This document shows positions 14,484 to 59,545 of a DNA stretch of 64,000 nucleotides, one piece after another. Source of the stretch: an uncultured Verrucomicrobiae bacterium. Its GTDB lineage: Bacteria; Verrucomicrobiota; Verrucomicrobiia; Chthoniobacterales; UBA10450. Both the position numbers and the translations under genes were made by a program. Position 1 is the stretch's first letter. Every line of letters begins with the position of its first letter. The notes beneath the pieces are model-generated. The model had not been told where the DNA came from and did not search any database. It was given only the letters and a program-made list of their open reading frames with translations. The DNA is taken from positions 96,001-160,000 of the forward strand of contig CAVWPA010000001.1 in assembly GCA_963756875.1 (NCBI GenBank). Reading direction: 5' to 3'.

Positions 14484-15877
14484 TCACAGCTCGATGGCGT
14501 AACGCTTCATTTTGTTATAAAGCGTCGGCCGCCCAATTCCGAGAAGCCGTGCCGCCTTCTTCTTGTTGCCGTGGCATCGCGCGAGCGCTTGCAAAATGGT
14601 CGCGCGCTCAACGTCATCGAGACTTAGCGCTCCATGCCACGGCTCAGTGCCACGCTCACTTTGTTGCAGCACCATTGGCAATTGCACTTCGGCCGGAAGT
14701 TCCTTTACGCCGATGAGATCTTGACGCGCCAACACGACTGCGTATTCCATCGCGTTTTGCAGCTCACGCACGTTGCCGGGCCACGTGTAGTCGAGCAGCT
14801 TTTCGAAAGCATCGGGCGCAATCGCCGGCTCCCGCTTTCCTAGTTGCTGCGCGAATTGTTTTACGAAAGAGGCGATGAGCGGCGGAATATCCTGCTTCCT
14901 ATCACGAAGCGGCGGTACTTCGATCTGAAATGTGTTCAGCCGGTAATACAAATCCGGACGCAAGCGCTTTTCGGCTAACGCTTGAGCAATCGGTCGATTC
15001 GTCGCTGCGATCACGCGGAAATCAACTTTCAGCGTTTCTGTGCTTCCAAGTGGTCGGTATTCACGTTCCTGCAGCACACGGAGAAAACGTGTCTGCAGTT
15101 CGATCGGCATATCAGAGATTTCGTCCAGAAACAGGGTGCTCCCTCCTGCCTCACCAATCATTCCGGTGAAATCGTTGGTCGCGCCGGTGAAAGCACCTTT
15201 TACGTACCGAAAAGCTCTCCTTCGATCATGGCTTGCGGAAACGCCGCGCAATTGAGTTTTACCATCGGCTTGGCCGCGCGGCGGCTGCGATGGTGAATCA
15301 TATTGGCAATCACTTCTTTGCCCACACCACTCTCGCCTGTGATGAGCACATTCGCTTCGGAAGGTGCCATGGCGTTGATTAACTCTTCGATTTCCTGCAT
15401 CGGCTTGCTTTTGAAGACTGGAGTAAGCCGCGTCTCGGCAATCTCGAGACGCTTCTCCAACTGCGCCGTCTTTTCTCGAAGTTCCGCCGTCTCGCGAAGC
15501 AATGTCTGTTTTTCCAACGCTTTCTCGACCAGACTGAGCAATTCCTCCGGAGCGTATGGTTTGCTGATGAAATGATAAGCACCGCGCTTGATCGATTCGA
15601 TCGCGTTGCTCAAAGAATCGTGCGCCGTCAGAATGATGACCGGCGTTTCTGGATGCTCGCTTTTGATTTGGTCGAGCATTTGGAATCCTTCTGCGTCAGG
15701 TAGTTGCAAATCGAGTAACACCAAGTCGGGCGATTTATTCTTCAATGCGCGCAAGCCTGTGGTCGCAGTTGCGGCCGTCTCCGTTTGATAACCGTGTCTG
15801 CCCAGAAGCGCCTCGAGTGTGAGAAGGATCGATCGCTGGTCGTCAACAATCAGGATTCGACGATTCTCCGTCATCAT
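14484..15877 (-). pseudogene. Sigma54-dependent response regulator (NtrC/AtoC family), frameshifted near 15205
   Basis: REC + GESGVGKE + NCAA...ELFG in one frame; YVKGAFTGA, FLDEI, DLYYRLN, WPGNVREL and HTH in another; one base missing in GGT-TAC. Confidence 0.85.
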
Positions 15878-48302: not shown

Positions 48303-49319
48303 CTACGACTCCAGCTTTTCTTCAATGGCTTTGACCCGGGCGAACAGCTTTCCGAGCCGATGAATCCAGGCAATCTGCCGTTTTGCGTTGGCAAAGGGTA
48401 CGGCTGGAGAACCGAACCAGACGCCTCCACGGGTGTCCTTCGTGATTCCGCTTTGCGCTGCGATCATGGTCCCGTCACCGATCTCAATGTGACCTATGAC
48501 GCCCACCTGGCCGGCCATCATGACGCGCTCGCCGAGGCGGGTACTGCCTGATACTCCCGCTTGCGCCGCGATCACGGAATGTTTGCCGATCACAACGTTG
48601 TGCGCCACCTGCACCAGATTATCGATCTTCACCCCCTCCTGTATCCAGGTGCGGCCAAAGCGGGCGCGATCGACGGTCGTGTTGGCCCCGATTTCCACGT
48701 CGTTATCGATCTGCACGATTCCGACCTGTTGAATTTTCCGCTGGCGGCCATCGACGAATTCGAAGCCAAAACCATCCGCCCCGATCACCGCGCCGCTATG
48801 AATAATGACGCGGGCGCCGATACGTGTCCGTTCGCGAATCGCGACATGGGGATAGATGGTACATTCCGGGCCGATTACGGTTTCATGGCCCACATAGGTT
48901 TGCGCTCCAATCACCGTGTCATCCCCGATGCTCGCCCCGGCCTCGATTACCGCGTACGGTTGCACCGAGACGCGCGCGCCCAGTTTTGCGCTCGGATCCA
49001 CGATCGCACTCGGGTGAACTCCTGGCGGAAACACCACAGGTTTCGGGGCCAGTCGCAGAACGATTTGTTCGAATGCCTTGGATGGATTTGAAACGTGAAT
49101 TTGTGCGGCTGGGATCGTTTCGGAGAAATCAACCGGCACGAAAACCGCGGAAGCGCGGGTCTTTTGCACCAGGGAAGCGTATCTGGGATCGGCAAAAAAC
49201 GTGATTTCACCCGGTTCGGCTTCCGCGAGCGACGCCGCCCCGGTTATTTTCCCGGCGGGATCACCGTGCAACTCGCCACCGGTGATCTTCGCGATTTCCT
49301 GGAGAGTAAAAGTCATCAA
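48303..49319 (-). CDS. lpxD: UDP-3-O-(3-hydroxyacyl)glucosamine N-acyltransferase
   Basis: Hexapeptide repeats; IGADGFGF, VEIGANTTVDRA and KIDNLVQVAHNV motifs. Confidence 0.96.
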   Translation of the reverse strand: MMTFTLQEIAKITGGELHGDPAGKITGAASLAEAEPGEITFFADPRYASLVQKTRASAVFVPVDFSETIPAAQIHVSNPSKAFEQIVLRLAPKPVVFPPGVHPSAIVDPSAKLGARVSVQPYAVIEAGASIGDDTVIGAQTYVGHETVIGPECTIYPHVAIRERTRIGARVIIHSGAVIGADGFGFEFVDGRQRKIQQVGIVQIDNDVEIGANTTVDRARFGRTWIQEGVKIDNLVQVAHNVVIGKHSVIAAQAGVSGSTRLGERVMMAGQVGVIGHIEIGDGTMIAAQSGITKDTRGGVWFGSPAVPFANAKRQIAWIHRLGKLFARVKAIEEKLES

Positions 49320-49459: not shown

Positions 49460-51463
49460 CTACCGTTGCTCGGTCCCTGGCAGCAGCACACTGACCGACG
49501 TGCCTTGAGGGCCCGAATCGATGTCCACCCTCCCGTTGTGATCGAAGATCGTGCGCTTCACAATCGGCAATCCTAATCCCATCCCGCGCGGCTTGGTGGT
49601 GCAAAAAGGAGAAAATATTTTCTCCTTCAACTCCGGCGCGATTCCTTTGCCGTTGTCCCGCACAGTAATCACAACTCCGCCGGGCCCGTCGTTTTCACGG
49701 AGTGGTTTTACCGAAAGCGCGATGCGGCGTTTCTTTTGATGGGAAAGAGCCTCGGCCGCGTTGGCCACCAGGTGAGCAAACGCTTCGGCAAGGGCTTCTT
49801 CATCGCCAAGCACGTGTGGCAGGTTGCCAGGCAGCGACGTTTCCACTTCAATCCCGCCATTTACCCCGAAGCGCGACCGGGCGATTTCGAGGCCTTTCTT
49901 TACCGGTGCGCGCACGTCGATGGACTTCAGAACAATTTCGGGCGGATGCGCGAAGCTATTGATCTGGGTAATGATCCTGTCCAGGCGATCGACCTCTTTA
50001 ACTACGATTTTGTTGAATTCCTTGCGGAAGTCGGCGTCCTCGAAGCGTTCGGGAAGAAGTTGGGCAAAAGTTTTTATGGCAACCAGCGGGTTGCGGATCT
50101 CGTGCGACATGCTGGCAGCGAGATCGGTCCAGAAGGCGGCTCGATCGAGCAGCGCCTGTTTTTCGCGCGTCGTTACTTCGGTGGTCAGATCGTGCAGAAC
50201 AGCCACGGCCCCAAGGGGCGTGCGCTGGTCTGCCAGGCGGCGCACCTCAACCGACAGCGGGCGACGCGTGTTATTGTCGGTCCACTGCCGCGCCGGCAGA
50301 TTCGCTTTCGAATCGAGGGCGTCGCGCAGGAACGAGGCCAGACGGGTTCCCAGTGCTTCCACAGGTTTGTTCACGGCATTTGAGCTCGACACTCCGAGAA
50401 GTTGCTCAGCCGTCGGGTTAAACCAACGCACGACTCCATCCTCATCGGTGGCTACGATGCCTGACGGAATCGATTTGAGAAGAGTTTCAGCCAGCGTTTT
50501 TTGCAGCGTTACTTCCTCGTAAAGCAGGGAGTTCTCCAGCACGGTTGAGACCTGTTCAGCCAGCAGCATCAGGGCTTCAAGATCGCGGTAATCGAACGGC
50601 TGGCCGGCGATCCGATGTCCGAAAAATAACCAGCCGATGATACGACCGCGTGCGTAAAGGGGCACAATGACTTCCGCGCCAAAAGCGTCCAGGGCGCGCC
50701 GCATCACCTGACGCGTTCTCTGATCCGCGGCTTGCGCAAGATTTGCGCGTGCGATCAGGGAGGCGTTCGATTCGAACCAGCGGACCAGCGCATCGCGCTC
50801 GCCAAATTCCATTTCGTGCGTTTCGGGCAGGCAGCGCAACCCCGCCCGTAGCCGGTAATCTTCGCCCTGGCGCCCGCGTGAAAAAATACCCACTCGCGCT
50901 ACACCGGCCGCGTCCGCCACGCCTTCCACAATGCTCCCGAGCAAAGCGTCGATATTTTCAAACCGGCGAAAAACCCGGGGAAAACGCATCATCACCGCAG
51001 ACGACGCGCCATAACGCTCCGCAGCAACCTCCGGTCGATGCAGTGGCTGGGCCACAGGGACCATGGCGGATGTTTCCCGCAAGTCCCGATTTTCCTGCAA
51101 AGCTTTGAGATAATCGAAAGCCCGGCCGGCCAAAGCCTGGAACCGGCGGCGATCCAACTCGAGATCTTCCGCTGCGTAAATTCCAAATTGTTCCGCTTCA
51201 CGCAGCGGTTCCGAGCGCATGACGCCGAGCGCTATGATCAGTACGTCCTGCCATTCCTGTTGAACTTGTTCGATGAGATCGCGGCATTCTTTGGCGCGGA
51301 GATCTGCAATCAGCAGGCAGGCGCCGACTTGCTGAAGAACCGCGTCCAGACGATCCGGCTCGCTGACGTGCCGTACTTGTGCGGCCATACGCAGGTACGC
51401 CCTGACCCGCCGGCTCAGATCGGAATCCTGCGTATATAAGATGCAGACCGGCGGGGGAATCAT
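49460..51463 (-). CDS. Cytoplasmic histidine kinase: degenerate receiver, GAF, PAS, HisKA, HATPase
   Basis: MSHEIRNPL, NAAEA, DNGKGI, FSPFCTTK and GMGLGL motifs. The ORF-track extension to 51625 is repeat-derived. Confidence 0.92.
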   Translation of the reverse strand: MIPPPVCILYTQDSDLSRRVRAYLRMAAQVRHVSEPDRLDAVLQQVGACLLIADLRAKECRDLIEQVQQEWQDVLIIALGVMRSEPLREAEQFGIYAAEDLELDRRRFQALAGRAFDYLKALQENRDLRETSAMVPVAQPLHRPEVAAERYGASSAVMMRFPRVFRRFENIDALLGSIVEGVADAAGVARVGIFSRGRQGEDYRLRAGLRCLPETHEMEFGERDALVRWFESNASLIARANLAQAADQRTRQVMRRALDAFGAEVIVPLYARGRIIGWLFFGHRIAGQPFDYRDLEALMLLAEQVSTVLENSLLYEEVTLQKTLAETLLKSIPSGIVATDEDGVVRWFNPTAEQLLGVSSSNAVNKPVEALGTRLASFLRDALDSKANLPARQWTDNNTRRPLSVEVRRLADQRTPLGAVAVLHDLTTEVTTREKQALLDRAAFWTDLAASMSHEIRNPLVAIKTFAQLLPERFEDADFRKEFNKIVVKEVDRLDRIITQINSFAHPPEIVLKSIDVRAPVKKGLEIARSRFGVNGGIEVETSLPGNLPHVLGDEEALAEAFAHLVANAAEALSHQKKRRIALSVKPLRENDGPGGVVITVRDNGKGIAPELKEKIFSPFCTTKPRGMGLGLPIVKRTIFDHNGRVDIDSGPQGTSVSVLLPGTEQR

Positions 51464-51554
51464 GCCGCCGTCGCTCCTGGAATACTCCGGTTCGGAGACT
51501 TTTTGGTGCCTGGTGTCGGGAAAGTGGAATTTCCCATTAGATCGCGACGGAAGG

Positions 51555-51762
51555 ACCAAATCCCAAGCACCAAATCCCAAAGAAACTTCAAGCTCCAATC
51601 TCCAAAGGGCGGTCTCGCGCAGCAATCTAACCTACGGGTCTCACCAATGATTGGCCAAACACCCGCTAAAGACATCGCGCTGTTACCGGACGCGATACGC
51701 GATATTTGAGTATTGGTATTTGGAGATTCCCTGGAGCTTGGGCTTTGGGATTTGAGGCTTCC
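51555..51762. repeat. Inverted heptamer array between the two kinase genes
   Basis: caaatcccaagcaccaaatcccaaagaaacttcaagctccaa ... ttggagattccctggagcttgggctttgggatttgaggctt. Confidence 0.75.
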
Positions 51763-51773
51763 GGTCATCGGTT

Positions 51774-54305
51774 TCATGCCGCCGCCACCTCGCTGCCAAA
51801 TCTAACGAGGGGAAGCAGAATGTGAAAAGCTGTTCCTTTTTTAAGTTCGCTCTCGACCTCGATCTGTCCCTCGTGCTCCTGAATGATTCCATGCACTACC
51901 GACAGGCCCAGTCCGGTCCCGTAATCCTTTGTCGTGAAGAAAGGATCAAAGACATGCGGGATATCCTGCTTGCGAATTCCATCGCCCGTATCGCGGATCG
52001 TGATTCGCAAAACCTCTATTTCCGCCGCACCGCCGTTGCCTTGGGCCATTGAAGAGGCCCATCTCTTTTGCGTTTGAATCTGGGTATTAACGACCAGTTC
52101 GCCGCCGTTTTTCATCGCGTCCATGGCATTCAGAAAGAAATTGAGAAAGACTTGCTCGAGCTGGTCGGCATCGCCGCGGATTGTATCAACATTTGCCTCC
52201 CAAGAGCGAGTTAATTTGATTTCTTTTTGATATAACCGGTGGCCGACCAGCATGAGCGATTTTTCCAGCGCTTCATGTGCGTGCATCTTCTTAAGATGCG
52301 GTTTGGCCGGGCGAGCAAAGCGAAGCAGCTGGTTAACCAGCGAATCGATCCGGTCGATCTCGTGTCCGATCAGGTTCGAGAAAGTCTCACGGAAATCGGA
52401 ATCCTGATAACGCTCCGGTAACAACTGCGCGAATGTTTTGATCGAAACCAGCGGATTCTTGATTTCGTGGGCCATGCCGGCCGAGAGCGTGCCGAGGCTG
52501 GCCAGCCGATCGCTGCGGCGAATTTGCGATTCGAGTCGCTTGAGCGCCGTGATATCGGTCAGCACCATCAGCGCACCGAGCATCTCTCCATTTTGATCGT
52601 GAAAGATGGACGTGCTTGTGCGCGCGACCCTCGCCTCGTCCCCAGACTGCAGGGCCAGCTCGTTGTTCTCCCGGCCCTGCCCGGTGTTCAAAGTTTCGCG
52701 CAACGTATCGCGCAACGGGCCGGGGAGCGCTCCAAGGGAAATGCCGGGAATTTCGTCGGCCTTGAGTCCCGTGATTCGTCCGGCTTCGTTGTTGAATACG
52801 GTAATAAGCTCGTCGGCGCCCGTGGCGATGACGCCAGTGGTCAGATTTTCCAGCAAAGTCTCGTTGTAAATCTTTGCGTTCTGCACCTCGGTAAAGAGCT
52901 CGGCATTTTCAATTGCCACCGCGAGCTGGCCGCATAAAACCTGCAAGGCGCTTTGCTCGACGCTTCCGTAAATGCGTCCCGATTTCCGTGCGCCGAGCAG
53001 CATCACGCCGGCCAGATGATCGCGAGCGAAGATTCCCATGGCCACCGCGACCTGGAGCGAGTTCAACTGTCTCATTACACTCTGGAGTTGCTCGGTGGGC
53101 CGCACGCGGCGCAGCTCGTCCATGACGACCGGCTCGTGCTCGGATTCAAGTTGCACGATCGTTGCCTGGTCGCGTGTCAATTCCAGCCGTTGGCGGGAAC
53201 CGGGCTCGACCATCGGATATTGCTGCGAAAATCCCTGTCTGTCCGGCAAAAGGATGAAGATCCGCTCGGTGCCGACGGCTCCGGCTACCGTATTGGCGAA
53301 TTTGTCCAACAGGTCTCTCAGAGTTGTAACGGAACTTAATATTTTGGCGGCCTTGCTTACGGTCGCGCGAAAATCGAGCTGATGGGAACCGATGAAAAGC
53401 CGTTCTGCAAATCGTTGCGAAACACCGCGTGCCGGCGCCATTGCAAACGCGATAACGATGGCCGCTACGACGTGCGCAATGGCGTGGGAATTCCCCGCCG
53501 AAGAATGCAATGCGGTCGCAACGAGCCACCAGACCAGCGCATAAAGGCTGAGCAGGTAAACCGTGAGTAAGCTATAAGAGATAACGCGACGAAGAAGGAC
53601 GCCGACGTCCATGATTTTTCGGGTCGCGATGCCGTAAGCGACTACCAGACTAAACAAAACGATTCGAAACGGGCCTAGCCAAGTCAACCTCGACGTATCT
53701 ACGAAGAGGCTTAAAAGAAGGTACAAAGGAATGGAAAGCAGAAGGGCTACAACAGCACCCATGATAACGAGTGCCATTTCTGATTTCTCAGGGCCCGAAA
53801 CTCGACGTAGGTCGAGTGACAAGAGGATGATTAAAGCGACGATCGCGCCCGCGAAGCACATCGCGAACAAATGAAAGCCCGGCCCATAAGAAGGGACGGG
53901 GAAAGATGAGGCATGCCCGGCCTCGTGACTTAGATGAACCCCTTTTAGAAAAAACTTAGTCTGACAAAGGATCGCGATGGCGATGCTACCTAAGAACCAT
54001 GGAAGCGCTCGCCGCAGGAGGGCGCGCCACCTTTCTTTTCCCCTGCGAATGGAGAGACGAAGAAGATTAACAGTCGCCAGAATGAACGCGCCCACGGCGG
54101 AGGCCTGTCGAATGCAAAACTCGGCGACCCCTAGGTTGTTCGTCAGTAGCCCGTAATAAAGGTTTGCCAGCCATCCGGTAATGGCGAGCGAAAGAAATAA
54201 GAAACACTGGTTGGATTTTCGCTTCGGGTTGGCTTGGAAGACGACCAGTCCTAAGCCCACCTGGATGAGAATCGCTGCAAGGGCTGGTAAGCCAGCGCTA
54301 GTCAT
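51774..54305 (-). CDS. Membrane sensor histidine kinase: multi-TM (HisKA_7TM-like), GAF, PAS, HisKA, HATPase
   Basis: About 9 hydrophobic helices starting ...NPKRKSNQCF; QLAVAIENAELF; MAHEIKNPL; FDPFFTTK; GTGLGL. Confidence 0.93.
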   Translation of the reverse strand: MTSAGLPALAAILIQVGLGLVVFQANPKRKSNQCFLFLSLAITGWLANLYYGLLTNNLGVAEFCIRQASAVGAFILATVNLLRLSIRRGKERWRALLRRALPWFLGSIAIAILCQTKFFLKGVHLSHEAGHASSFPVPSYGPGFHLFAMCFAGAIVALIILLSLDLRRVSGPEKSEMALVIMGAVVALLLSIPLYLLLSLFVDTSRLTWLGPFRIVLFSLVVAYGIATRKIMDVGVLLRRVISYSLLTVYLLSLYALVWWLVATALHSSAGNSHAIAHVVAAIVIAFAMAPARGVSQRFAERLFIGSHQLDFRATVSKAAKILSSVTTLRDLLDKFANTVAGAVGTERIFILLPDRQGFSQQYPMVEPGSRQRLELTRDQATIVQLESEHEPVVMDELRRVRPTEQLQSVMRQLNSLQVAVAMGIFARDHLAGVMLLGARKSGRIYGSVEQSALQVLCGQLAVAIENAELFTEVQNAKIYNETLLENLTTGVIATGADELITVFNNEAGRITGLKADEIPGISLGALPGPLRDTLRETLNTGQGRENNELALQSGDEARVARTSTSIFHDQNGEMLGALMVLTDITALKRLESQIRRSDRLASLGTLSAGMAHEIKNPLVSIKTFAQLLPERYQDSDFRETFSNLIGHEIDRIDSLVNQLLRFARPAKPHLKKMHAHEALEKSLMLVGHRLYQKEIKLTRSWEANVDTIRGDADQLEQVFLNFFLNAMDAMKNGGELVVNTQIQTQKRWASSMAQGNGGAAEIEVLRITIRDTGDGIRKQDIPHVFDPFFTTKDYGTGLGLSVVHGIIQEHEGQIEVESELKKGTAFHILLPLVRFGSEVAAA

Positions 54306-55545
54306 CGCCTGAAATACGGTTCGCAATCATCGTGCACGCACTGCCTCCGAGGCCTCTGACATTGATAAGGGTGCAGCCTACCTTCGTTTTGCGAGGGCGG
54401 GACGGAACGAAATCGAGGTCGCAATCGGCATCCCCGGTTTCGAAGTTTGCCGTTGGCGCGATGATCTGATCGCGAATGCTAAGGGCACACGTGGCCAGTT
54501 GCAATGGGCCTCCGGCAGCCAACGGGTTTCCAGTGACGCCTTTAATGGAGTTGACTGGAATTTCGTAGGCTCGCTCGCGAAAAACCTCCTTTATAAACCG
54601 CACTTCCGCCGCGTCCAAAGTTCGATCGCTTGGACCGTACGCAGAGATGTAGTCAACGTCTTCGGTGGAACGCACCGCGTTCGCCAGTGCAAGCCTCATT
54701 GAGTCGACCAAACCGGAACCGGGTCTCTCGGGATCGAGATCGCGCCGCTTCGCATAACCGCATATTTCGAGATAAGCGCGCGCTCCCCGAGCTTCTGCGT
54801 GCTCCAGATTTTCAAGGATGAAAATACATGCGCCCTCCGCGAGAACACCACATTGTCTCTCGGAATCAAAAGGTCGGCTGGCTTTCTCAGGTTCCCCATT
54901 CGTGGTCGAACAAAGTCCGCTTCCTATGAAACTCGCCATCGTTAACGGTGTTATAGGAGCGTCTGCCCCGCCGGCGACGGCAATCTCTGCTTCTCCCATG
55001 CGGATCATGGCAGCCGCGTCAGCCACCGCATCGAGACCGGATGGGCAAGCCGAAGAAACCGTCACCGCGTTGGCGCACGCGCCCAGTCGATCAGCGATAA
55101 GGTTTGCCGGCGCTTGAGGAATTGAAGCGGCCGATGCGCTCGCGGGCGCGCGGTTCGGCCCGCGGTCCCGCAGGGCGAAATAAACACTTTCGATCACATC
55201 TATCGCGCTGGTGCTTATTCCGATCACCACCGGAGTCGGGCTGGGTAATTCGAGATTGTCGGGATCCAGTCCCGCGTCTCGTAGCGCCATCATTGTTGCC
55301 GCGTAGGCAAACTGCGTGTGCCGCGCCATCCGCTTGGGTTTCAACTCCGGCTCAATGTAATCCAGCGGATCGAAGTTCTTTACCTCACCGGCAATGCGAC
55401 TCTTGAAACCAGTCGCATCGAACAACGTGATCGGCCCAATCCCGCTGCGACTGGCGAGGAGCGACTCCCAAAATGGCTCAATGCCAATCCCGTTCGGGGC
55501 TAGAATTCCCATGCCAGTGATAACAACGCGATTTCTCCTGGTCAT
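54298..55545 (-). CDS. FabF-like beta-ketoacyl synthase with a non-canonical active site
   Basis: RVVITGMG, SSACPSG, SRPFD and EGA motifs; YISAYG and KGVTGN replace the canonical YINAHG and KSMTGH. Confidence 0.9.
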   Translation of the reverse strand: MTRRNRVVITGMGILAPNGIGIEPFWESLLASRSGIGPITLFDATGFKSRIAGEVKNFDPLDYIEPELKPKRMARHTQFAYAATMMALRDAGLDPDNLELPSPTPVVIGISTSAIDVIESVYFALRDRGPNRAPASASAASIPQAPANLIADRLGACANAVTVSSACPSGLDAVADAAAMIRMGEAEIAVAGGADAPITPLTMASFIGSGLCSTTNGEPEKASRPFDSERQCGVLAEGACIFILENLEHAEARGARAYLEICGYAKRRDLDPERPGSGLVDSMRLALANAVRSTEDVDYISAYGPSDRTLDAAEVRFIKEVFRERAYEIPVNSIKGVTGNPLAAGGPLQLATCALSIRDQIIAPTANFETGDADCDLDFVPSRPRKTKVGCTLINVRGLGGSACTMIANRISGDD

Positions 55546-55760
55546 ATTATTCTATTCCATTTCGAGAAATGGTGGTTCATAGTGCCGACAATGCGGGTGA
55601 CTCGATCTCTGCGGCAGAGAAATTTCGCTGCGGTGGTTATAAACCCAAAGTAATGGCCGGTCACACTGGACACGAGCGGATCACGACCGATTCTAAACGC
55701 TACATTAAATCCAGTCATTATATTTTTCTGCCACTTTCAGCCCGACTTATTCACCAAATT

Positions 55761-55782
55761 TGCAACTTATCCACAAGTTGCA
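55761..55782. promoter_or_regulatory. Inverted repeat, candidate activator site, overlapping a TTATCCACA DnaA-box consensus
   Basis: tgcaactt-atccac-aagttgca in an AT-rich divergent intergenic region. Confidence 0.45.
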
Positions 55783-55868
55783 TCTTGCGCGCCAACTGTT
55801 TTCATTTCAGCTTCTTTACTCCGTTTTCTATGCTTCCGCGGCCTTTTTTTTCATCTCGTCACCCTCCT

Positions 55869-55884
55869 CGGCACGCGCCTAGCT
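55869..55884 (+). promoter_or_regulatory. Putative sigma54 (-24/-12) promoter
   Basis: CGGCACGCGCCTAGCT versus consensus TGGCACG-N4-TTGCW; 20 nt upstream of the ATG at 55905. Confidence 0.55.
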
Positions 55885-55904
55885 GTTAACCCGCTCGGTC
55901 ATAC

Positions 55905-57059
55905 ATGACTGCCTCAACCGAATTGCCTCAAATTCTCGTTATTGACGATGAAATGGGACCGCGGGAAAGCCTGCGCATGCTGCTAAAACCGAACTACCAG
56001 GTTCACACGGCCGATTGCGTCGAGGCGGGTCTCAAACTGCTCAAGGAAAAATCTCCCGACACGATCGTCATGGATATCCGCATGCCTGGTATGACCGGAA
56101 TCGATGGCTTGCGAAAGATCCGCGAGATCGATCCGCATCTTTCCGTCATTATGCTCACCGGTTTTGGAGCGCTTGATACGGCAAAAGAGGCCCTGCGCCT
56201 GGGCGCCAACGATTATATCAGCAAACCGTTTGATGCGCGCGAAATGCAGGAAGTAATCGGCCGTAACGTGGAACGCACCCGCGTTCAACGAACCGCGGAT
56301 CATGCCGCTGAAGAAATCAAGGAGCTAAACAACCGCCTGCTCAAAGAACTGGCTCAAAAGGAAAGACTGGCGTCCCTCGGTCAAGCCTCGGCCGAATTCG
56401 TGCATGATCTCGGTAACCCGCTGACCATTGTCTGGGGTTATGTGCAGCTGCTGGCCAAGCGGCTGGAAAAATCCGAAAACAGCGATACTGCTACCCAAAA
56501 TGCGACCTCGGTTAAAGAGCTCAATATTATCGAACAGAACGTCCGTCTGTGCCGTGAGCTTCTTACAATGTGGCAAAGTTACGGCAGCGTCGAAGCGTCT
56601 CCGCCCAAGCCCCTCTCCGTGTCGGAAATCCTCCGGGAAATCATCAAAGGCATCAGCGCGGTGGCAACTCAGAGCGGCGTGGAACTAAATGCCACCATCT
56701 GCGAAGACCCGTGCATTCTGCTCGGCGACGCCGTGCAAGTGAGACGCGCGATTCAAAACGTGGTGATTAACGCGGTGCAAGCTTCCGCGGAGAAAAAAGG
56801 GTCGGTCAAAGTCACCTGCACAAAAAAAGATTTCTACGTCGATCTTCTCATCGAAGACAACGGACCCGGAATTGCTCCCGCGGAACTGAACAGAATTTTC
56901 GACCCTTATTTCACGACCAAGCAGGCGAAGAGCGGCACCGGTCTTGGACTGTATATCACGAAAAAAGTCGTCCAGGATCACAATGGTTCGATCAAGGTGG
57001 ACACCACGCCCGGTGTCGGCAGTATTTTCACAATCCGTTTGCCGCTCTCGAATAAGTAG
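55905..57059 (+). CDS. Hybrid response regulator / histidine kinase (REC, HisKA, HATPase)
   Basis: VIDDE, MDIRMP, YISKPF, FVHDLGNPL, DNGPGI and GTGLGL motifs. Confidence 0.93.
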   Translation: MTASTELPQILVIDDEMGPRESLRMLLKPNYQVHTADCVEAGLKLLKEKSPDTIVMDIRMPGMTGIDGLRKIREIDPHLSVIMLTGFGALDTAKEALRLGANDYISKPFDAREMQEVIGRNVERTRVQRTADHAAEEIKELNNRLLKELAQKERLASLGQASAEFVHDLGNPLTIVWGYVQLLAKRLEKSENSDTATQNATSVKELNIIEQNVRLCRELLTMWQSYGSVEASPPKPLSVSEILREIIKGISAVATQSGVELNATICEDPCILLGDAVQVRRAIQNVVINAVQASAEKKGSVKVTCTKKDFYVDLLIEDNGPGIAPAELNRIFDPYFTTKQAKSGTGLGLYITKKVVQDHNGSIKVDTTPGVGSIFTIRLPLSNK

Positions 57060-57217: not shown

Positions 57218-59545
57218 GTGCGCTCTTCTCCAGATTTAAGAATTGCTACTGCGCGGGCGTTTCGTTTTCCTGAACGCGTGCCATCTGCTTATCAAGTCGC
57301 ACCGATTTTTTTGATCCGGATGGCGGGAGTTCCTTTCGAGCGAATTGAACACCTTGCCACTCGGGAGACGGCCGCGACCGCTCGCGAACTGGTCTCGAAG
57401 GTGAATAAATTGAACTCTGAAGACGAAGCACGCCTGCTTACAGCGCTTCAAATCGAACTGGAGAGATCGAGGAAATCGCTTTTTGAGGCCGCGCGCACGG
57501 TCCTTCCGCATTATTTGGTTTTTGCAGGCGAAGGCATGCAGGAGAGAGCAGCCTCTTTGATTGAAGGGCTAGTCACCCAGGACAATACGTTGCCCGCGCG
57601 CAACAGTCGCAATCGGGATCGTGAGCGCCACTTGGTTCTTTATCTTCAACGAATCGCAGCCAAGAACGACACTTTTGGTGAGTTCGGTCCCTCAGGCTGG
57701 GGCAGGATTGACGGCAATCGTACCGGCGTAAAGATCGACGTCGTACCTGGCGTTGCAGCGCGGGAGGTATTTCTCGAACGCTGGACCGCGCACGCGATCG
57801 CCGGCGTTATCAACGCCGATCCTGACATTCAGCCCGAACTTTGTCCGCGGCTGAATCCAAACGGCCGGATTGAAGGGCTAGCTTTCGTTTTTGCCGATTC
57901 CGGCGAAAAAGTGGTGCTGGATCAGGCCACGCTCGATCTCGTCAAACGATGCGATGGGCGAACGCCGGTTCATTCGTTAGGCGTACCGGTCGAGAACATT
58001 TACGCCCTTGTGGAAAAGAAATTCCTGCGCTGCGCGATGGAAGTTCCCGCTCTTGATCCACATGCGTTCGCGATCCTGTGTGATGATGTCAGGAAATGGC
58101 GTGCTGGGCCGGTGCGCGACAAGTGGTTGTCGATATTGCAGCCAATTTCGGAGCTACCGCAGGCGTTTGTCACCGCATCTAAAACGAAAGATCGACATGC
58201 AATTATCGATGAAGCGCGGGCCCGTCTTCTCTCGGCGGGGGCTGTCCACAAGCCGGGCGACCGGTTCTTGTACTCGGCAAGCAACCCGATCGGCGAGGAA
58301 TGTTTTCGTGAATGCGGTATCTCGATCGACGCAGCCTTGATCAATGAGGTCGCGACGGAGGCCGAACCCTGGATCGATTTCTGGCGCGATTCCTACGCCT
58401 TTGTCGCGTCGCGCGTCGCGGGCGGTTTGCGACAGATAATGGAAAAGGCCGGCGCCCAAAATGGACCGATTCCGTTGCCTGCATTTCTCAGTGCCTGCGA
58501 AGCGGCGAAACTCTCGCTTAGCGGTCCGGGACTTGTCGCCTTCGCGGTCATGGCCTTTCAAGAAGTAAAAGCCGCTTTCCGGCAGCGCCTGAAACCACAT
58601 GTCGATTGCGCCGAGTACGAGCTCACGGTCGAAGACTGCCATGTCGTGCGCAATAACTTCCAGTACCCGCTCTTCGACGAATACACATATCCGTCGGCCG
58701 ATCTGCAAATTGCAGCAAAATCTGCTGACGCGATTGCGCGCGGCGATTATCAATGGATTTTGGCCGAATTGCATCCGCCGGCGGCATTGCTGCATCATTG
58801 CATGTATTGGAGTTGTCCGGACAAACCGGCCCTCAACAGGGCGATGGCCAGCGTCGTATTTGGTCGCCCCAATTTTCACTTCGGGTTTTTTGCCGCCGAT
58901 TTTACTTCGCATACGGCAGTACGCTTGTTCGACGCGCTTCCCGAATTTTCCAACTTTGTCGCGCCGCAACGGGGAAATCCAAACTGGCGCACCGTTCCGC
59001 CATCTCAGGCCGAAGTTTATGTCGATCCCGAGAGCGGAGATGTTTGTCTGCGCAAGATCGACAATCAGGAATACCTCGGCTCATTTGCACGGGCCTGGAT
59101 CATTCCGCTCGGTTTCCACCCGTTCCAATTTGGAGTGGCTCCGCAGACGCCGCGGTTGCGGTGCGGTAAAGTGATCGTCCAACGGCGCGCCTGGGTAGTG
59201 ACCGTCGCTGAAATCCCGCCTGGAAATTATACCGGCGTATCGCGCAACCTTGTCCTGGCGATCGAGCGGTTGCGCGCGAAAAGAGATTTGCCGCGCTATA
59301 TTTACATTCGCCCGACCGAACAGGCGCTTCGCCGCAGCGGCGCGGAAGGTCGCGATAAAGACACCAAACCGGTGTTTATCGATCTGGAGAGCTATCTTTT
59401 TCTCGAAATCTTCTATCGCTGGCTTACGAAAGCCGGCGAGTTGGAGGTGACCGAAATGCTCCCGGACCCGGAGCATTTGCCATGGAAAGAGCCGGATGGC
59501 CGGCACACGTTTGAGCTGCGCACGCTCATCGTTCCGCGCGCATGA
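57218..59545 (+). CDS. LanB glutamylation-domain-only protein (PEARL, peptide aminoacyl-tRNA ligase-like)
   Basis: YLQRIAAKNDTFGEFGP, SADLQIAA, LAELHP, PRLRCGKVIVQRRAW, LPRYIYIR, KPVFID and EMLP...GRHTFELR end; no elimination domain. Confidence 0.85.
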   Translation: MRSSPDLRIATARAFRFPERVPSAYQVAPIFLIRMAGVPFERIEHLATRETAATARELVSKVNKLNSEDEARLLTALQIELERSRKSLFEAARTVLPHYLVFAGEGMQERAASLIEGLVTQDNTLPARNSRNRDRERHLVLYLQRIAAKNDTFGEFGPSGWGRIDGNRTGVKIDVVPGVAAREVFLERWTAHAIAGVINADPDIQPELCPRLNPNGRIEGLAFVFADSGEKVVLDQATLDLVKRCDGRTPVHSLGVPVENIYALVEKKFLRCAMEVPALDPHAFAILCDDVRKWRAGPVRDKWLSILQPISELPQAFVTASKTKDRHAIIDEARARLLSAGAVHKPGDRFLYSASNPIGEECFRECGISIDAALINEVATEAEPWIDFWRDSYAFVASRVAGGLRQIMEKAGAQNGPIPLPAFLSACEAAKLSLSGPGLVAFAVMAFQEVKAAFRQRLKPHVDCAEYELTVEDCHVVRNNFQYPLFDEYTYPSADLQIAAKSADAIARGDYQWILAELHPPAALLHHCMYWSCPDKPALNRAMASVVFGRPNFHFGFFAADFTSHTAVRLFDALPEFSNFVAPQRGNPNWRTVPPSQAEVYVDPESGDVCLRKIDNQEYLGSFARAWIIPLGFHPFQFGVAPQTPRLRCGKVIVQRRAWVVTVAEIPPGNYTGVSRNLVLAIERLRAKRDLPRYIYIRPTEQALRRSGAEGRDKDTKPVFIDLESYLFLEIFYRWLTKAGELEVTEMLPDPEHLPWKEPDGRHTFELRTLIVPRA

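Follow-up and report, generated by a model that had tools for sequence, protein, structure and literature searches.

Soils and waters harbour abundant Verrucomicrobiota, and signalling in this phylum is almost unstudied. The stretch considered here, which we call the window, is 64,000 nucleotides of DNA from an uncultured Verrucomicrobiae bacterium of the order Chthoniobacterales (assembly GCA_963756875.1, contig CAVWPA010000001.1, positions 96,001 to 160,000). It contains, on the minus strand, a gene for a protein with the fold of FabF, the β-ketoacyl-acyl carrier protein (ACP) synthase II (KAS II), followed by the genes of a membrane sensor kinase (kinase 1) and a soluble one (kinase 2), while a third kinase gene, for a receiver (REC) domain joined to a kinase (REC-kinase), lies divergently (Table 1). 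Judged by its residues and its gene context, the first of these products, referred to below as the ketosynthase-like (KS-like) protein, is most likely part of an undescribed lipid-linked signalling module rather than of fatty-acid synthesis.

Table 1. Features of the KS-like locus and its flanks, in window coordinates
Feature	Position	Strand	Basis or remark
KS-like gene (FabF/KAS II fold), 415 aa	54298..55545	-	translation; Pfam PF00109 + PF02801
Overlap of KS-like stop and kinase 1 start, 8 nt, ATGACTAG	54298..54305	-	sequence read
Sensor kinase 1, 843 aa from ATG	51774..54305	-	Pfam; hydrophobicity scan; AlphaFold2 (AF2) model
Sensor kinase 2, soluble	49460..51625	-	Pfam GAF, PAS, HisKA, HATPase_c
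REC-HisKA-HATPase gene (REC-kinase), 384 aa, divergent	55905..57059	+	Pfam
Divergent intergenic region between KS-like and REC-kinase genes	55546..55904		open reading frame (ORF) list
lpxD	48303..49319	-	after kinase 2
775-aa protein, weak Lant_dehydr_N match	57218..59545	+	Pfam E=9e-16

A FabF fold with a remodelled active site

The overall architecture of the KS-like protein is that of a FabF. Its AF2 model (mean predicted local distance difference test, pLDDT, 95.8) superimposes on B. subtilis FabF (4LS7) in a Foldseek search with a template modelling (TM) score of 0.95, which places the predicted structure within the KAS I/II thiolase fold, and its neighbours in both the Foldseek and the PDB sequence searches are all FabF-type. 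Sequence identity to FabFs is 36-40%, and the best NCBIfam matches are all fabF or fabB types. On the FabF model TIGR03150 the protein scores 340.2 bits, under the cut-off of 493.75, and the same was true of all eight representatives of its clade that were tested; no NCBIfam model specific for the clade was found. The genome has a canonical fabF elsewhere (G000:C3:1034554-1035774), which reaches 635.7 bits on the same model.

The translation contains the segments SSACPSG, YISAYGPSD, KGVTGNPL and NVRGLGG, and in the columns aligned to the last three the same genome's FabF (L001:1489-2739) has YINAHATST, KSMTGHLL and NSFGFGG. When mapped from E. coli K-12 FabF, C163 corresponds to Cys167, H303 to Tyr303, K335 to Lys335, H340 to Asn340, F398 to Arg397, F400 to Leu399 and N404 to Ala403, and an alignment to B. 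subtilis FabF agrees with this map. Residue roles and gating-loop definitions for FabF were taken from the available part of bioRxiv 10.1101/644518. Compared with FabF/KAS II enzymes (TIGR03150; B. subtilis 4LS5-4LS8 and E. coli FabF), the KS-like protein shares the fold with both of its Pfam halves, the Cys nucleophile (C163), D265, D311, E314, K335, N396 and the glycines of loop 1. It differs in having Tyr for H303, Asn for H340, Arg for F398, Leu for the F400 gate, Ala for N404 and Gly for F229. Of the six basic residues with which E. coli FabF docks ACP, three are also gone (K65E, K128G/A and R206G). The gating loops depart from the FabF pattern in the same way, with GLGG instead of GFGG, Ala403 for Asn404, and a loop 2 (D-A-Y-H-I/M-T-A-P in FabF) shortened by a four-residue deletion of the H268-S271 equivalents, which include H268 and T270.

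A preliminary description of this locus had reported that the acyl-accepting Cys is kept while Tyr and Asn occupy the positions of the two FabF catalytic His residues. Both the translation and the FabF alignments bear this out, and they widen it, since more than two residues have changed and the whole surround of the active site is remodelled. Judged from sequence, the KS-like protein is not an ordinary fatty-acid elongase. Two other identities were considered and ruled out: a chain-length factor (KS-beta) of a type II polyketide synthase, which would have another residue, usually Gln, for the active-site Cys and a KS-alpha gene beside it, because the Cys is present in all 131 relatives and no second ketosynthase gene adjoins in the window, and a KAS III (FabH-like) enzyme, because the Pfam domains PF00109 and PF02801 are of the KAS I/II type.

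A search of 1.84 billion representative sequences placed the KS-like protein in a wider FabF-like clade, defined by the signature A-H-G-P-[GS]-[HD], K-G-x-x-G-N-P and N-x-H-G-x-G-G together with the loop-2 deletion. A database search with the protein lists more than 120 clusters of full-length relatives at 72-92% identity. Changes found throughout, or nearly throughout, the clade are R206G, F229G, the deletion of H268-S271, T305P, T307H/D (Asp in this genome's protein), S336G, H340N, L341P, F398H/R and F400L, to which the branch with Tyr at position 303 adds H303Y, K65E, K128G/A and N404A. Among 131 full-length relatives, which were taken from the fetched loci and not de-replicated, the Cys nucleophile is invariant (131/131), and the residues at 303, 340 and 398 are Tyr/Asn/Arg in 87, His/Asn/His in 39, Asn/His/His in two and other single variants in three. 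The ratio of nonsynonymous to synonymous substitution (dN/dS) within the Tyr group has a median of 0.07 (range 0.03-0.20 over 212 pairs, limited to dS of 0.05-1.5). The possibility raised earlier that the substitutions reflect decay or sequencing error is thus answered by their presence in 87 of the 131 relatives and by this ratio: they are conserved under purifying selection, as read from the sequences.

The phylogeny was a quick maximum-likelihood tree (99 rows, LG+G4) with support from the Shimodaira-Hasegawa-like approximate likelihood ratio test (SH-aLRT) only and no bootstraps. It splits the clade from ten FabFs with an SH-aLRT of 100. The Tyr/Arg group, itself supported at 100 (14 rows), falls within His/Asn/His module genes (support 96), from which it follows that the His losses are derived and arose once. 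On this tree the form without His is a derived branch of a wider clade that has Cys, His303 and Asn340 with a His at FabF position 398. When 401 genomes of the phylum were sampled, 39 had a match at E below 1e-100, a cut placed in the gap between 5e-97 and 6e-107; these include all three genomes from the window's family and none of the seven from other families of the same order, none is labelled 'same class', and the remainder are labelled 'same phylum'.

Two members of the clade (L162 and L166, in genomes G038 and G089) belong to one family and have the reverse arrangement, Asn303/His340/His398, with Arg replacing Lys335; the operon in this family ends with a REC-HTH_8 regulator without an AAA+ domain. 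A look-alike cluster in the ESM Atlas is labelled Thermodesulfobacteriota, and is given as a lead only.

Kinase linkage and module content in relatives

The KS-like stop codon lies at 54300-54298 and the kinase 1 ATG at 54305-54303, beginning inside the GAT of the terminal GAT GAC TAG. The 8-nt overlap described earlier is therefore confirmed by reading the minus strand. The kinase N-terminus (MTSAGLPALA) is where alignments of homologues also begin, at the same Met, and the arrangement suggests translational coupling of the two genes. Kinase 1 contains HisKA_7TM, GAF, PAS, HisKA and HATPase_c domains by Pfam, the HisKA_7TM match (PF16927) being marginal at 29.7 bits against a gathering cut-off of 28.6. 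From the hydrophobicity scan and the AF2 model (pLDDT 89.4 for residues 1-320), nine helices with short loops are predicted between residues 5 and 308, and the bundle carries one small beta-hairpin loop at 120-140. The available part of PMC5847659 gives no function for the HisKA_7TM domain. Foldseek found only weak matches of the membrane domain to helix bundles resembling G-protein-coupled receptors (TM 0.36-0.55, root-mean-square deviation 4.5-9.3 Å), and these were not accepted as homology.

Kinase 2 has no hydrophobic segment and probably starts at the 51463 ATG, which is Met55 in the ORF as listed; in related loci it comes after kinase 1, with 42-73% identity. The REC-kinase consists of receiver and kinase domains without a DNA-binding domain, and is 67-88% identical in loci of the window's family and 40-51% identical in distant modules.

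Conservation of the gene pair was assessed in three sets of loci, from species-representative genomes (L008-L036), from metagenomes found with a clade-alignment search (L059-L138), and from the best 30 matches in the 401 phylum genomes (L139-L168). Linkage was called where at least 600 nt of downstream DNA was available and a kinase N-terminus started within 400 nt after the KS-like gene. By this measure 124 of 127 loci have kinase 1 directly behind the KS-like gene (26/28, 68/69 and 30/30 in the three sets). Two of the three misses, L034 and L036, are loci with fragmented genes, and the third is L122. The linkage persists where identity has fallen to 44-50% for the KS-like protein and to about 30-45% for the kinase, and it spans many family codes of the phylum, so that the enzyme gene is conserved beside a membrane sensor kinase across genomes, as the preliminary description had suggested should be looked for. 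The KS-like gene never adjoins fab genes; what stands behind it, in these 124 loci, is the sensor kinase. At L122 (212-4315) the KS-like protein has Trp at position 303; beside its gene lies a convergent one for a Ser/Thr protein kinase with tetratricopeptide repeats, and there is no seven-transmembrane kinase downstream.

In other classes of the phylum the pair is embedded in a fuller module, which was surveyed in 19-kb stretches from 20 genomes (19 of them callable) and in two long metagenome loci, with genes called by a simple longest-ORF rule that sometimes picked antisense frames. The usual order has a flavin adenine dinucleotide (FAD) oxidase, when present, the REC-kinase and FadL on one strand, and divergently the KS-like gene, kinase 1, kinase 2 and an NtrC-type sigma-54 regulator. 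Of the 19 loci, 18 have a divergent FadL gene, and in 12 the REC-kinase is beside it; an NtrC-type regulator follows kinase 2 in seven, its place being taken by a REC-HTH_8 protein in three; and a FAD_binding_4 oxidase is found in eight. Other enzyme genes recur as well, namely a class-I S-adenosylmethionine methyltransferase (five loci), an O-methyltransferase (three) and a fusion of GNAT/FeeM-like and aminotransferase domains (three). Together, the FadL, methyltransferase and FAD-oxidase genes of these relatives fit a putative small hydrophobic signal. In the three genomes with the fusion (L177:472-2094, L187 and L191), it lies near the module and joins a GNAT/FeeM-like N-acyl amino acid synthase domain to a class-V (PhnW/AepZ-like) aminotransferase.

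The strict sigma-54 -24/-12 pattern occurs 14 times in 894 kb of strand from 26 loci, and by our own reading of the positions 11 of these occurrences immediately precede the first divergent gene. When every locus with upstream DNA is counted, 17 of 56 non-Tyr loci have the pattern within 1.8 kb on the divergent strand, as against none of 60 Tyr loci. As these patterns stand ahead of the divergent genes, the FadL operon is probably the module's local output.

The version in the window is a reduced one. Its family retains the KS-like gene and the three kinases, all of them conserved, and appears to represent a stripped module: the genes for FadL, the tailoring enzymes and the NtrC-type regulator have been lost, as have the His residues that other members of the clade keep. 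The genome, at 87.6% completeness, gave no FadL (PF03349) match, the O-methyltransferase of the fuller modules has its only hit there at 26% identity, and none of the genome's sigma-54 activators exceeds 39% identity to the module regulators, whereas these regulators are 45-100% identical to one another. The divergent intergenic region contains no strict sigma-54 motif, and scans for sigma-70 promoters and terminators over 48.0-56.2 kb did no better than with shuffled sequence. Within it lies a 106-aa ORF (55569-55889, plus strand) with a low-complexity translation, which has tblastn matches of 44-56% in some loci of the family; it is probably not a gene, and a conserved regulatory region is more likely.

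The earlier statements that no ACP or chain-length factor gene is nearby also hold: a whole-genome search with PF00550 gave two ACP matches, both on other contigs and none in the window, and no second ketosynthase or short-chain reductase was present among the 23 ORFs scanned with Pfam between 37.5 and 64 kb, FabG not having been searched on its own. The genome further carries an adjacent pair of ketosynthase paralogues (L002:356-2718, at about 921.9-924.2 kb of G000:C3), in the second of which Gly aligns with the Cys, as in a ketosynthase/chain-length-factor pair, and two lone ketosynthase paralogues at L004 and L005.

Candidate roles in lipid-linked signalling

Tentatively, and with something short of even confidence, we favour a role for the KS-like protein as a dedicated non-condensing acyl-Cys enzyme that would supply a lipid ligand to the membrane domain of kinase 1. 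An acyl chain from acyl-ACP or acyl-coenzyme A (acyl-CoA) would be loaded onto Cys167 and, since FabF-style decarboxylation of malonyl-ACP appears impossible in such an active site, would then be handed on or released as a hydrophobic ligand. This ligand might be read inside the membrane by the helix bundle of kinase 1, from which kinase 2 and the REC-kinase would relay the phosphoryl signal. Where the module is fuller, the compound may be tailored by the O- or class-I methyltransferase and the FAD oxidase, cross the outer membrane through FadL, and induce the FadL operon via the module's own NtrC-type sigma-54 regulator, giving a full signal loop. The circuit in the window's family would probably be internal to the cell and act on an endogenous acyl compound. 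For this genome we consider a cell-internal or direct co-sensor role about as likely as quorum sensing.

Several known systems have a comparable logic. In CqsA/CqsS, LqsA/LqsS and RpfF/RpfC a synthase gene stands beside that of a kinase sensing a hydrophobic ligand in its membrane helices, and RpfF is an enzyme of a fatty-acid-enzyme fold that acts on acyl-ACP and is bound by its own kinase. The folds of those synthases are a pyridoxal-phosphate acyltransferase and a crotonase, unlike that of the KS-like protein. Loss of the catalytic His with retention of Cys has a precedent in the KS0 domains of trans-acyltransferase polyketide synthases, which carry out acyl transfer only; these domains lie inside megasynthases beside ACP domains, whereas the KS-like protein is stand-alone and the window has no ACP gene. 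Signals are also made by PqsD, DarB and PpyS, thiolase-fold enzymes of the KAS III type, while the KS-like protein is of the KAS I/II type (PF00109, PF02801) and thus on a different branch of the thiolase fold.

By analogy of layout, the nearest described logic is that of the Ralstonia phcBSRQ operon, which, in the available part of PMC8578825, comprises the lipid-signal methyltransferase PhcB, the sensor kinase PhcS and PhcR, a REC-and-kinase protein without a DNA-binding domain. The two loci may be likened in that each combines a gene of signal-enzyme type, a membrane sensor kinase and a soluble receiver-kinase protein, and methyltransferase genes recur in the fuller KS-like modules. They differ in that PhcB is a methyltransferase and not a ketosynthase, the present module adds two kinases, a sigma-54 regulator and FadL, and the methyltransferase is absent from the locus in the window's own family. 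For FadL, the title of PMC9938287 names an involvement with long-chain acyl-homoserine lactone signals. No published description of the KS-like/kinase module was found in literature searches on ketosynthases, HisKA_7TM kinases, Verrucomicrobia, FadL and quorum sensing.

A number of points weigh against a ligand-supplying enzyme. Its putative chemistry is a reading of residues; the acyl donor is uncertain because half of the six ACP-docking residues are lost (K65E, K128G/A, R206G); and since positions 303, 340 and 398 all lack His and 307 is Asp, no residue stands out as a general base for releasing or transferring the chain. The fuller module owes its biosynthetic look to FadL, methyltransferase, FAD-oxidase and NtrC genes, and these are missing from the window's family, although with an incomplete genome (87.6%) some genes may have escaped detection. 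In the fuller module it is the sensor operon, not the one driven by sigma-54, that contains the KS-like gene, a position that fits a sensory role too, and FadL with a sigma-54 regulator is a common layout for the uptake of hydrophobic nutrients. The loci with context all come from one phylum, and as kin they are not independent. Of the synthase and receptor pair envisaged by the preliminary description, what survives is a protein that is not an elongase, a conserved linkage to the kinase and, in relatives, genes of a small-molecule type; a simple synthase is weakened here by the loss of His303 and His398 and by the lack of the fuller-module genes.

That the protein is an ordinary FabF, still elongating, or one altered by sequencing error or strain-specific decay, is very improbable. 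The overall fold and the 36-40% identity to FabFs are what it has in its favour. Against it stand the same residue state in 87 sequences, the dN/dS of 0.07 and the large number of full-length clusters, as well as the canonical fabF elsewhere in the genome and the disappearance of both His residues, the Phe400 gate and loop 2. An unlikely explanation, with rather more to commend it, is that the kinases sense a hydrophobic compound imported by FadL and induce its uptake via sigma-54, the KS-like protein being a co-transcribed metabolic enzyme. The divergent FadL in 18 of 19 loci, behind a sigma-54-type motif, and the NtrC-type regulator at the operon end are in keeping with this, and the layout is typical of substrate-induced uptake, as in TodS/TodT with TodX. 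Catabolic genes (β-oxidation, acyl-CoA ligase, oxygenases) are, however, not recurrent in the loci, and O-methyltransferases are not catabolic. Moreover, the window's family has kept the KS-like gene and kinases while FadL was not found in the genome, and it is with the kinase, rather than with FadL, that the KS-like gene is tightly coupled.

The main alternative, possible if somewhat doubtful, is a covalent acyl co-sensor, in which no signal would be made and Cys167 would be acylated by the acyl-ACP/acyl-CoA pool, its state being read through contact with a kinase. The partner might be kinase 1, kinase 2 or the REC-kinase, and the module would report on the state of the cell's fatty acids or envelope lipids, or on fatty acids coming in by import. 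The start/stop overlap and the invariant adjacency suggest co-expression at equal dose, as in protein complexes. The Cys is invariant while the would-be turnover residues differ by lineage (His/Asn/His, Asn/His/His, Tyr/Asn/Arg), as would be expected if acylation itself were the signal. It is also the KS-like gene and the kinases that stayed when the FadL, tailoring and NtrC genes went, and the KS-like gene belongs to the sensor operon while the sigma-54 promoter drives the FadL side. On the other hand, pure sensing leaves unexplained the recurrent methyltransferase, FAD-oxidase and GNAT genes of the fuller modules, and contact between the KS-like protein and a kinase is conjecture. Co-folding of the KS-like protein with kinase 1 residues 1-585 gave scores of 0.01 and 0.00 against a mark of 0.32, which counts neither for nor against such contact. 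We know of no ketosynthase-fold receptor, and our literature searches turned up none, although they were not aimed at this question. The more specific proposal that the KS-like protein is such a receptor, a pseudo-enzyme left with no chemistry but self-acylation at Cys167 from the acyl-ACP/acyl-CoA pool, which would directly gate the co-translated kinases, we regard as doubtful.

The first gene of this conserved module appears to encode a fatty-acid-synthase fold that selection has turned from chain extension. If the KS-like protein supplies a lipid signal, as we tentatively favour, it would represent a new family of autoinducer synthases, and the HisKA_7TM sensor domain, so far uncharacterised, would gain a candidate ligand. 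Should it instead sense acyl groups covalently, it would be a new coupling of lipid metabolism to two-component signalling; and if it is itself the receptor, a multi-kinase phosphorelay would receive a covalent read-out of fatty-acid or envelope-lipid status. The active sites of the clade (His/Asn/His, Asn/His/His and Tyr/Asn/Arg) form a natural series of ready variants for tests of the half-reactions.

Neighbouring genes

On the plus strand the REC-kinase gene is followed by that of the 775-aa protein and then by parA. The sole family match of the 775-aa protein covers the C-terminal part of Lant_dehydr_N, it has no NCBIfam match, and by synteny its position between the REC-kinase gene and parA is conserved in the window's own family only. 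LpxD was considered as a part of the module and dropped, as its gene is conserved downstream within the family only and is in some loci separated from the module by another gene. Farther away, on the minus strand at 14484-15877, a sigma-54-dependent response regulator (REC and AAA+ domains) is split over the overlapping ORFs 14484-15251 and 15200-15877, either by a frameshift or by an assembly error near 15206-15212. Also on the minus strand, the segment 37524-42490 holds a tandem pair of T2SSE/MshEN ATPase genes together with a T2SSF gene, all with the look of type IV pilus or type II secretion genes.

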